Source: Escherichia coli (GTDB lineage Bacteria; Pseudomonadota; Gammaproteobacteria; Enterobacterales; Enterobacteriaceae). From it: DNA of 566 nucleotides. The DNA is taken from assembly GCF_003334315.1 (NCBI RefSeq), contig NZ_QOWR01000131.1; one strand, written 5' to 3'. A program made the position numbers and the translations under genes. The notes beneath the pieces are model-generated. The model made no database searches and was not told the origin of the DNA. It saw only the letters and a program-made list of their open reading frames with translations. Below are positions 317 through 360 of this stretch, piece by piece; position 1 is the first letter of the stretch, and each line of letters opens with the position of its first letter.

Positions 317-358
317 ATAACATGTAGTTAAAACCTCTTCAAATTTGCCGTGCAAATT
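317..358 (-). other. Inter-tRNA spacer between tRNA-Ile and tRNA-Ala
   Basis: 42 nt of non-coding sequence between the two tRNAs. It contains a duplicated palindromic octamer (see the repeat feature). Confidence 0.9.

Positions 359-360
<2 letters not shown>
340..360 (-). repeat. Tandem duplicated palindromic octamer CAAATTTG-N5-CAAATTTG (potential 8-bp hairpin)
   Basis: Seen directly: caaatttg at 340-347 and again at 353-360, separated by ccgtg. The octamer is its own reverse complement, so the two copies can pair as an 8-bp stem with a 5-nt loop. The 3'-most two plus-strand bases (359-360) overlap the CA of the tRNA-Ile CCA end. Confidence 0.7.

Follow-up and report, generated by a model that had tools for sequence, protein, structure and literature searches.

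A hairpin adjoining the CCA end of tRNA-Ile in the 16S–23S rRNA spacer of Escherichia coli and its counterpart in a larger stem-loop of related bacteria

The spacer between the 16S and 23S rRNA genes of Escherichia coli carries, at the 3' end of tRNA-Ile, two copies of the octamer CAAATTTG, which is its own reverse complement. The copies occupy positions 340–347 and 353–360 of the window, which is the whole stretch of 566 nucleotides analysed here, and are separated by 5 nucleotides. The original prediction, made from the sequence alone, had recognized exactly this arrangement, and had described it as a duplicated octamer whose transcript could form an 8-base-pair A/U-rich stem affecting the maturation of tRNA-Ile. 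The locus raises the question of whether such a structure is formed by the rRNA precursor, how it originated, and what it may do.

The window is an E. coli-type 16S–23S rRNA spacer on the minus strand, as identified using ARAGORN and Rfam (Table 1). Of 5426 complete E. coli genomes, 5408 contain the 81 nucleotides around the hairpin with at least 95% identity. The median number of such sites per genome is three, and the annotation flanking them is always tRNA-Ile on one side and tRNA-Ala on the other. In a search with a permissive threshold, only the Rfam families tRNA, SSU, LSU, and StyR-44 reached their thresholds in the window, and positions 329–360 were left uncovered. The match to StyR-44, a known Rfam family, is full-length, with a score of 123 bits, over the boxA-containing leader of the 23S rRNA, and it is unrelated to the hairpin. 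The linker that constitutes the 5' leader of tRNA-Ala is single-stranded in local folds and in folds with a short leader; however, it pairs with the upstream leader in folds that include a 30-nucleotide leader. No RN↓WUU motif is present in the linker.

Table 1 Features of the window, long-form examples, and complementary leader/trailer pairs of related bacteria.
Feature	Position	Strand	Basis
16S rRNA 3' end	504–566	minus	Rfam
Leader strand UAAAACCUCU, ending 2 nucleotides before tRNA-Ile +1, pairs with 329–338	438–447	minus	folds, pair probabilities, cognate duplex test, covarying variants
tRNA-Ile(GAT), enclosed by the hairpin and the leader–trailer helix	359–435	minus	ARAGORN; Rfam tRNA, 66.3 bits
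Hairpin 5' arm, RNA 5'-CAAAUUUGC-3'	352–360	minus	inverted repeat, fold, pair probabilities 0.985–1.0
Hairpin loop, ACG on the RNA strand	349–351	minus	fold
Hairpin 3' arm, RNA 5'-GCAAAUUUG-3'; G340 pairs with C75	340–348	minus	inverted repeat, fold
Unpaired A between the hairpin and the leader–trailer helix	339	minus	constrained minimum-free-energy structures
Trailer strand AGAGGUUUUA	329–338	minus	folds, pair probabilities, cognate duplex test, covarying variants
Linker, 5' leader of tRNA-Ala	317–328	minus	folds
tRNA-Ala(TGC), downstream neighbour of tRNA-Ile	241–316	minus	ARAGORN, Rfam
StyR-44/boxA region	65–173	minus	Rfam
23S rRNA 5' end	1–57	minus	Rfam
Long-form examples	L036:225–334; L073:1428–1541	minus	
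Leader/trailer complementary pairs differing between genera: AAAACCUCU/AGAGGUUUU; AAUCUCUG/CAGAGAUU; GUAAAACCUU/AAGGUUUUAC; AAUACCUUUAU/AUAAAGGUAU			
Further leader/trailer pairs across genera: ACGGUAUCUAU/AUAGAUACUGU; CGUUAUCGCG/UGUGAUAGCG; GUAAAACCCCGG/CCGGCGGUUUUAC; GUAUCAUU/AAUGAUAC			

The hairpin at the CCA end of tRNA-Ile

Positions 360 and 359, which are covered by the second copy of CAAATTTG, are C75 and A76 of the CCA end of tRNA-Ile according to the end assigned by ARAGORN, and the overlap with the last two nucleotides of the tRNA had thus been predicted correctly. The true complementary arms are 9 nucleotides long, 100% complementary, and separated by a loop of three nucleotides. 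The complete hairpin reads 5'-CAAAUUUGC-ACG-GCAAAUUUG-3' on the RNA. The two copies of CAAATTTG are thereby shown to be the arms of a 9-base-pair hairpin in the rrn precursor, which starts from C75 of tRNA-Ile. The expected A/U-rich hairpin is present on the transcript; however, its dimensions differ from the proposed 8-base-pair stem with five nucleotides between the arms. The self-complementarity of AAAUUU is the sole reason why the octamer resembles a direct repeat.

The hairpin is confirmed as real and unlikely to occur by chance. Three or more matches to the octamer with at most one mismatch were found in none of 200 shuffled sequences. A perfect 9-nucleotide inverted repeat with a loop of 3–8 nucleotides appeared anywhere in the sequence in 58 of 5000 shuffles of the window that preserved the dinucleotide composition. 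The isolated 29-nucleotide segment folds with an energy of −8.4 kcal/mol, compared with −1.86 ± 1.64 kcal/mol for shuffled controls (z = −3.99), and none of 200 shuffles was as good. The folding energy is thus better than that of the controls, as the original prediction demanded of a genuine structure. When the minus-strand RNA comprising a 30-nucleotide leader, tRNA-Ile, and the spacer was folded, every pair of the hairpin had a probability of 0.985 or more under the cloverleaf constraint and of 0.97 or more when the fold was left free; therefore, the hairpin forms irrespective of the tRNA constraint. In E. coli, C75 and A76 are predicted to be paired with G340 and U341. The unconstrained fold of positions 317–370, in which the 3' strand of the acceptor stem is paired with the trailer, is an artefact of cutting the tRNA. 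An intrinsic terminator was also considered and rejected: there is no terminator-like site on either strand, and the A/U-rich stem is followed by AAGAGG and not by a run of U. For E. coli the hairpin is a modest finding: it is a sound and fairly ordinary structure of precursor RNA, of a familiar kind.

The helix formed by the leader and trailer of tRNA-Ile

The hairpin has a partner helix that was absent from the original prediction and that was first seen in the fold of a 210-nucleotide dicistronic precursor. The helix is formed by the leader UAAAACCUCU (447–438) and the trailer AGAGGUUUUA (338–329) of tRNA-Ile, and contains 10 base pairs with probabilities of 0.61–1.0 and a duplex energy of −11.0 kcal/mol. 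It is separated from the hairpin by the single nucleotide A339 and from tRNA +1 by positions 437–436, and A73 and C74 lie between the acceptor stem and the hairpin. The pre-tRNA-Ile is predicted to be held in a tight three-way junction, in which the helices are one to two unpaired nucleotides apart and the CCA end is partly base-paired.

Because MAFFT aligned the trailers poorly across genera, the conservation of the leader–trailer helix was assessed by comparing the energies of cognate and non-cognate duplexes and not by counting alignment columns. In the relatives of E. coli, cognate duplexes have a mean energy of −9.28 kcal/mol, compared with −5.53 kcal/mol for non-cognate ones, and the difference was reached in none of 5000 permutations. 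The leader of tRNA-Ile is complementary to its trailer, and the complementarity is kept across species by covariation, with pairs of strands that differ between genera (Table 1). The leader and trailer of tRNA-Ala also share a short complementary stretch, ACUACA and UGUAGU, at positions 323–328 and 231–236 of the minus strand; however, the signal is weak, with −6.41 kcal/mol for cognate and −5.79 kcal/mol for non-cognate duplexes at 81 loci, and 9 of 5000 permutations reaching the difference. The trailer strand at 329–338 contains the Shine-Dalgarno-like AAGAGG, and the leader strand at 438–447 the anti-Shine-Dalgarno-like CCUCU. This likeness is probably coincidental, because other genera carry unrelated sequences in these positions.

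Two Xenorhabdus loci have spacers of 16–20 nucleotides without the hairpin. Leader–trailer pairing is clear in the locus with the 16-nucleotide spacer (L062), whereas the signal is much weaker in that with the 20-nucleotide spacer (L019). The persistence of the leader–trailer helix in L062 shows that it is more general and more widespread than the hairpin, which is an optional insert where this helix meets the tRNA.

The base helix and the long stem-loop in related bacteria

The comparative sample included at least 120 loci obtained by a contig scan that was anchored on one exact sequence, the last 25 nucleotides of the 3' half of tRNA-Ile. Among the matches listed, the loci belong mostly to Enterobacterales with a few from Oceanospirillales, and about two-thirds of the spacers are 100–139 nucleotides long, with a minority of 75 nucleotides or shorter. 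A conserved stem-loop of about 80 nucleotides is common to the long spacers, and its base, CCA-AAUU(Y)NNN paired with NNN(R)AAUU, follows directly after the CCA. Its interior of about 65 nucleotides contains the conserved motifs CUGCGUU, UCGCAUA, and GCCUUG and an apical helix GCAUAC/GUAUGC. When five long-form loci were searched with the permissive threshold, no Rfam family was found over the spacer between tRNA-Ile and tRNA-Ala.

The hairpin, leader, and trailer of E. coli align to the long forms, and the short forms lack the 65–70 interior nucleotides. The correspondence is illustrated by Erwinia, with AATTTGCACTCA...TGAGCACAAATT, and E. coli, with AATTTGCACGGCAAATT. In the alignment of the long forms described below, AAUUUGC and GCAAAUU of E. 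coli fall into columns 111–118 and 188–195. On the evidence of these alignments, the hairpin is shown to be homologous to the base helix of the approximately 80-nucleotide stem-loop that fills the Ile–Ala spacer, of 100–135 nucleotides, in most Enterobacterales and some Oceanospirillales. The position is the same, and the flanks (CCA-AAUUYNNN and NNNRAAUU) and the trailer are homologous; by contrast, the E. coli element has neither the interior motifs nor the GGU that follows the long stem-loop in relatives. The sequence comparison likewise shows, at the level of alignment, that the interior was lost and the base kept in the E. coli lineage and in some rrn copies of Enterobacter and Citrobacter. 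What had been taken for a duplicated octamer is instead an inverted repeat that remains from the base of a much larger spacer stem-loop. The conserved interior is absent from the window, and blastn found no match to the long form in 5426 E. coli genomes. The long form would most simply be the ancestral state, because it is carried by several families of Enterobacterales and by Nitrincola, Aliamphritea, and Neptuniibacter.

Among the long forms listed, 36 of 68 have a GGU no more than 8 nucleotides beyond the stem-loop, compared with a background of 12%. Folding of the long forms predicts C74 and C75 as the pairing partners of this GGU. There is no such motif in E. coli, where only A339 lies between the 3' arm of the hairpin and the trailer helix.

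Covariation of the long form was evaluated in a MAFFT alignment of 38 distinct sequences that was not fitted to the structure. RNAalifold identified 19 pairs with compensatory changes. In the named structure, 89.2% of the pair cells contain standard pairs, compared with 28.5–45.9% when the 3' partners were slid by one to three columns, and the covariation score is 0.516, compared with at most 0.156. Changes on both sides were found in 22 of 27 pairs, compared with 11–18 after sliding. None of 500 shuffles reached the observed percentage of paired cells or the covariation score. In the base helix, which corresponds to the hairpin of E. coli, seven of eight pairs change on both sides, for example, CG in 20 and UA in 14 sequences at one pair, and UA in 19, CG in 10, GC in 4, and AU in 2 at another. 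The direct evidence of covariation comes from this homologous helix of the long forms, and the sample contained only five distinct short hairpins of the E. coli type. Conservation and covariation among related spacers, which had been named as a check of the hairpin, were thus found, and the homologous helix is kept by compensatory changes.

The loops of the short forms of the E. coli type vary while the stem is kept, with GAU in Citrobacter amalonaticus, GAA in Enterobacter sichuanensis, and ACG or ACC in E. coli. In E. asburiae, the hairpin AAUUCGC-CCU-GCGGAUU has a U-A pair swapped for C-G and contains a U·G pair. Other short forms have unrelated hairpins in the same place: GUUCAUUC/GAAUGAAU, AAUUCUU/AAGAAUU, and CCAAUU/AAUUGG, the last in Xenorhabdus. 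The 5' arm of the hairpin pairs with its own spacer with an energy of −6.06 kcal/mol, compared with −5.09 kcal/mol for spacers of other species, and none of 5000 permutations reached this difference. When 82 unique sequences were folded under constraint, 87% of them had a helix beginning between C74 and position +2, compared with 42% of shuffled ones, and some nucleotides of the CCA are paired in 71%, compared with 49%; the shuffled background of these statistics is high, since the controls pair fairly often.

Within E. coli, exact copies of the 81-mer were found with the loop ACG in 3464 and with the loop ACC in 2388 of 5414 records. In three of three sampled E. coli records without an exact copy carrying the ACG loop, position 349 of the loop is the sole difference. 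The stem did not vary among the records seen, which within a single species is not by itself proof of selection.

Several loci are unusual. In one E. coli genome (GIMC1405:EC_Lstone01, NZ_CM139235.1, L124), an N and a partly duplicated segment, CAAATTTGGATGGTTTGTGNACGGCAAATTTG, are present in the hairpin region, and a tRNA other than tRNA-Ala lies downstream; this locus resembles an artefact of assembly in which two types of rrn operon were joined. The spacers of a metagenome-assembled "Bacillota bacterium" (L050) and of "uncultured Desulfovibrio sp." UMGS1580 (L112) are identical to that of E. coli, probably owing to contamination of metagenome bins. A second tRNA-Ile-like copy is present inside the Ile–Ala spacer of Neptuniibacter and Marinobacterium loci (L077, at approximately 135–212, L081, L093, and L094). 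The anticodon arm of this copy is CACCCC-ACTCTTTATA(T/A)AAAGAAAG-GGGGTG instead of CACCCCTGATAAGGGTG, and ARAGORN does not call it as a tRNA.

Candidate roles of the hairpin module

We infer that the hairpin module probably serves as a folding and processing scaffold, which closes tRNA-Ile into a domain of its own and masks the CCA end. The scaffold would insulate tRNA-Ile from the flanking rRNA precursor, and its helices would mask the CCA together with A/U-rich sites similar to those recognized by RNase E. Opening or cutting of the helices would then enable an ordered release of tRNA-Ile, by RNase P at the 5' end and by an endonuclease and 3' exonucleases at the 3' end. The hairpin of E. coli would be a minimal version of the element that still keeps the geometry of the junction. 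All six RN↓WUU motifs in positions 330–359 are located inside predicted helices; therefore, masking of these sites fits better than guiding of the nuclease to them. Against the scaffold stands E. coli itself, which has lost the interior and the GGU without visible cost, so that much of the element is dispensable. In the literature searched, including a search with the literal sequence, no description of the hairpin was found; it may have been drawn in the original sequence papers of 1979, such as that of Sekiya and Nishimura. No mapped ends, mutants, or cleavage data for the ileT–alaT spacer were found in the searchable literature.

The scaffold resembles several known systems. The leader–trailer stems of 16S and 23S rRNA in the same operon are similar to the tRNA-Ile helix in that the flanks pair and loop out the mature RNA. 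The rRNA stems show covariation across species, and maturation removes them. By contrast, the helix at tRNA-Ile has only about 10 base pairs, encloses a tRNA, and has no reported RNase III cut. The hairpin also belongs to the positional class of the V2 helix from the 16S–23S spacer of cyanobacteria, since it lies between tRNA-Ile and tRNA-Ala and the transcribed strand folds there into a local helix that is stable. The V2 helix is a structural landmark of variable length; however, it occurs in another phylum, where it is used for taxonomy, and it is likened to the hairpin by position and not by sequence homology. We know of no description in which V2 overlaps the CCA or belongs to a leader–trailer junction. 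The intervening sequences in helices 25 and 45 of enterobacterial 23S rRNA are stem-loops that are present or absent depending on the rrn copy or species, with the base of the helix retained. The spacer stem-loop is similar to them in that it is likewise extended and of uneven occurrence, with a base that is kept either way. However, the intervening sequences are located inside the 23S rRNA, from which RNase III excises them, whereas the spacer element lies outside any mature RNA and its interior is conserved in sequence across orders.

An alternative to the scaffold is that the hairpin is an evolutionary vestige, a functionless deletion scar of the ancestral stem-loop that is kept by concerted evolution of the rrn copies. 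An inverted repeat would have been left automatically, because the deletion fell inside a hairpin. The disappearance of the interior and the GGU from E. coli, together with the absence of the long form from the 5426 genomes, agrees with such a scar, as do the Xenorhabdus spacers that manage without any hairpin. Variation restricted to the loop in E. coli is compatible with it as well, but is uninformative on selection. However, the short forms of Enterobacter, Citrobacter, Kluyvera, Leclercia, Pectobacterium, Xenorhabdus, and Arsenophonus keep a helix adjacent to the CCA despite their differing sequences and loops, compensatory changes maintain the homologous base helix in the long forms, and the start of a helix at the CCA is about twice as frequent as in shuffled sequences. 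A mere scar is therefore unlikely, while retaining an appreciable chance of being correct.

It is possible, but doubtful, that the pairing of the CCA in cis and the leader–trailer helix constitute a timing device, which would keep the RCCA end and the geometry of the cleavage site hidden from both RNase P and CCA-binding factors as long as the trailer is neither cut nor unwound. Kirsebom and Svard reportedly described in 1994 the RCCA-GGU pairing of the 3' end of pre-tRNA with the L15 loop of bacterial RNase P RNA. The nucleotides of the tRNA that take part in this contact are the same as those paired in the spacer by the GGU of relatives or by G340 and U341 of E. coli; however, the pairing partner in the spacer is provided in cis, within the precursor. 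The CCA interaction is also a subject of PMC1874595. If the timing device were real, the processing of the spacer tRNA-Ile would proceed at the 3' end before the 5' end, and its release would be coupled to the processing of pre-rRNA.

The design of the tRNA-Ile helix, with its resemblance to the rRNA leader–trailer stems, raises the possibility that the hairpin stacked on the leader–trailer helix is a substrate of RNase III, which would cut it to release tRNA-Ile in the same manner as the 16S and 23S stems. The stacked length, with one unpaired A between the helices, is about 19–20 base pairs in E. coli and about 40 base pairs in the long forms, which are extended and mostly paired rods. However, the E. 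coli helices have only 9–10 base pairs each and are interrupted by the branch of the tRNA. Furthermore, the text of the in vivo map of RNase III sites in the rrn operons of E. coli lists sites 5' and 3' of 16S rRNA and 3' of alaT, gltT, 23S, and 5S, and names none between ileT and alaT (PMC6212723). Cleavage by RNase III is accordingly quite improbable.

The original prediction had proposed a narrower role, in which the hairpin is a barrier to exonucleases at the CCA or a guide for RNase E in separating the two tRNAs. The hairpin abuts the CCA, and AAAUUU fits the RN↓WUU preference of RNase E, which reportedly emerged from TIER-seq work in Salmonella. However, RNase E prefers single strands, and the motifs are all sequestered in the predicted helices. 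With C75 and A76 inside the stem, trimming by nucleases specific for single strands would stop short of the mature end and not at it, and other E. coli tRNAs mature without a hairpin of this sort. Such a barrier or guide is very improbable.

A role of the element at the level of DNA, as a palindromic protein-binding site, an internal promoter of tRNA-Ala, a terminator, or a recombination site, is suggested by the two copies of CAAATTTG, which is a perfect DNA palindrome, but is extremely improbable, because no sigma-70-like promoter or terminator-like match is present anywhere in the window, the relatives keep the pairing and not the sequence, with loops and arms that differ freely between genera, and G·U pairs are found only on the transcribed strand, the other strand having A·C in their place.

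The stem-loop of about 80 nucleotides has strong covariation and is distributed in Enterobacterales and some Oceanospirillales, and it is represented by no Rfam family. If the scaffold reading is correct, the spacer tRNAs are not passive passengers of the rRNA precursor; each would be held in a small processing stem of its own with a masked CCA end, similarly to the rRNAs. The scaffold would also provide a handle, testable by mutations, on the order in which tRNAs are released relative to the maturation of 16S and 23S rRNA.
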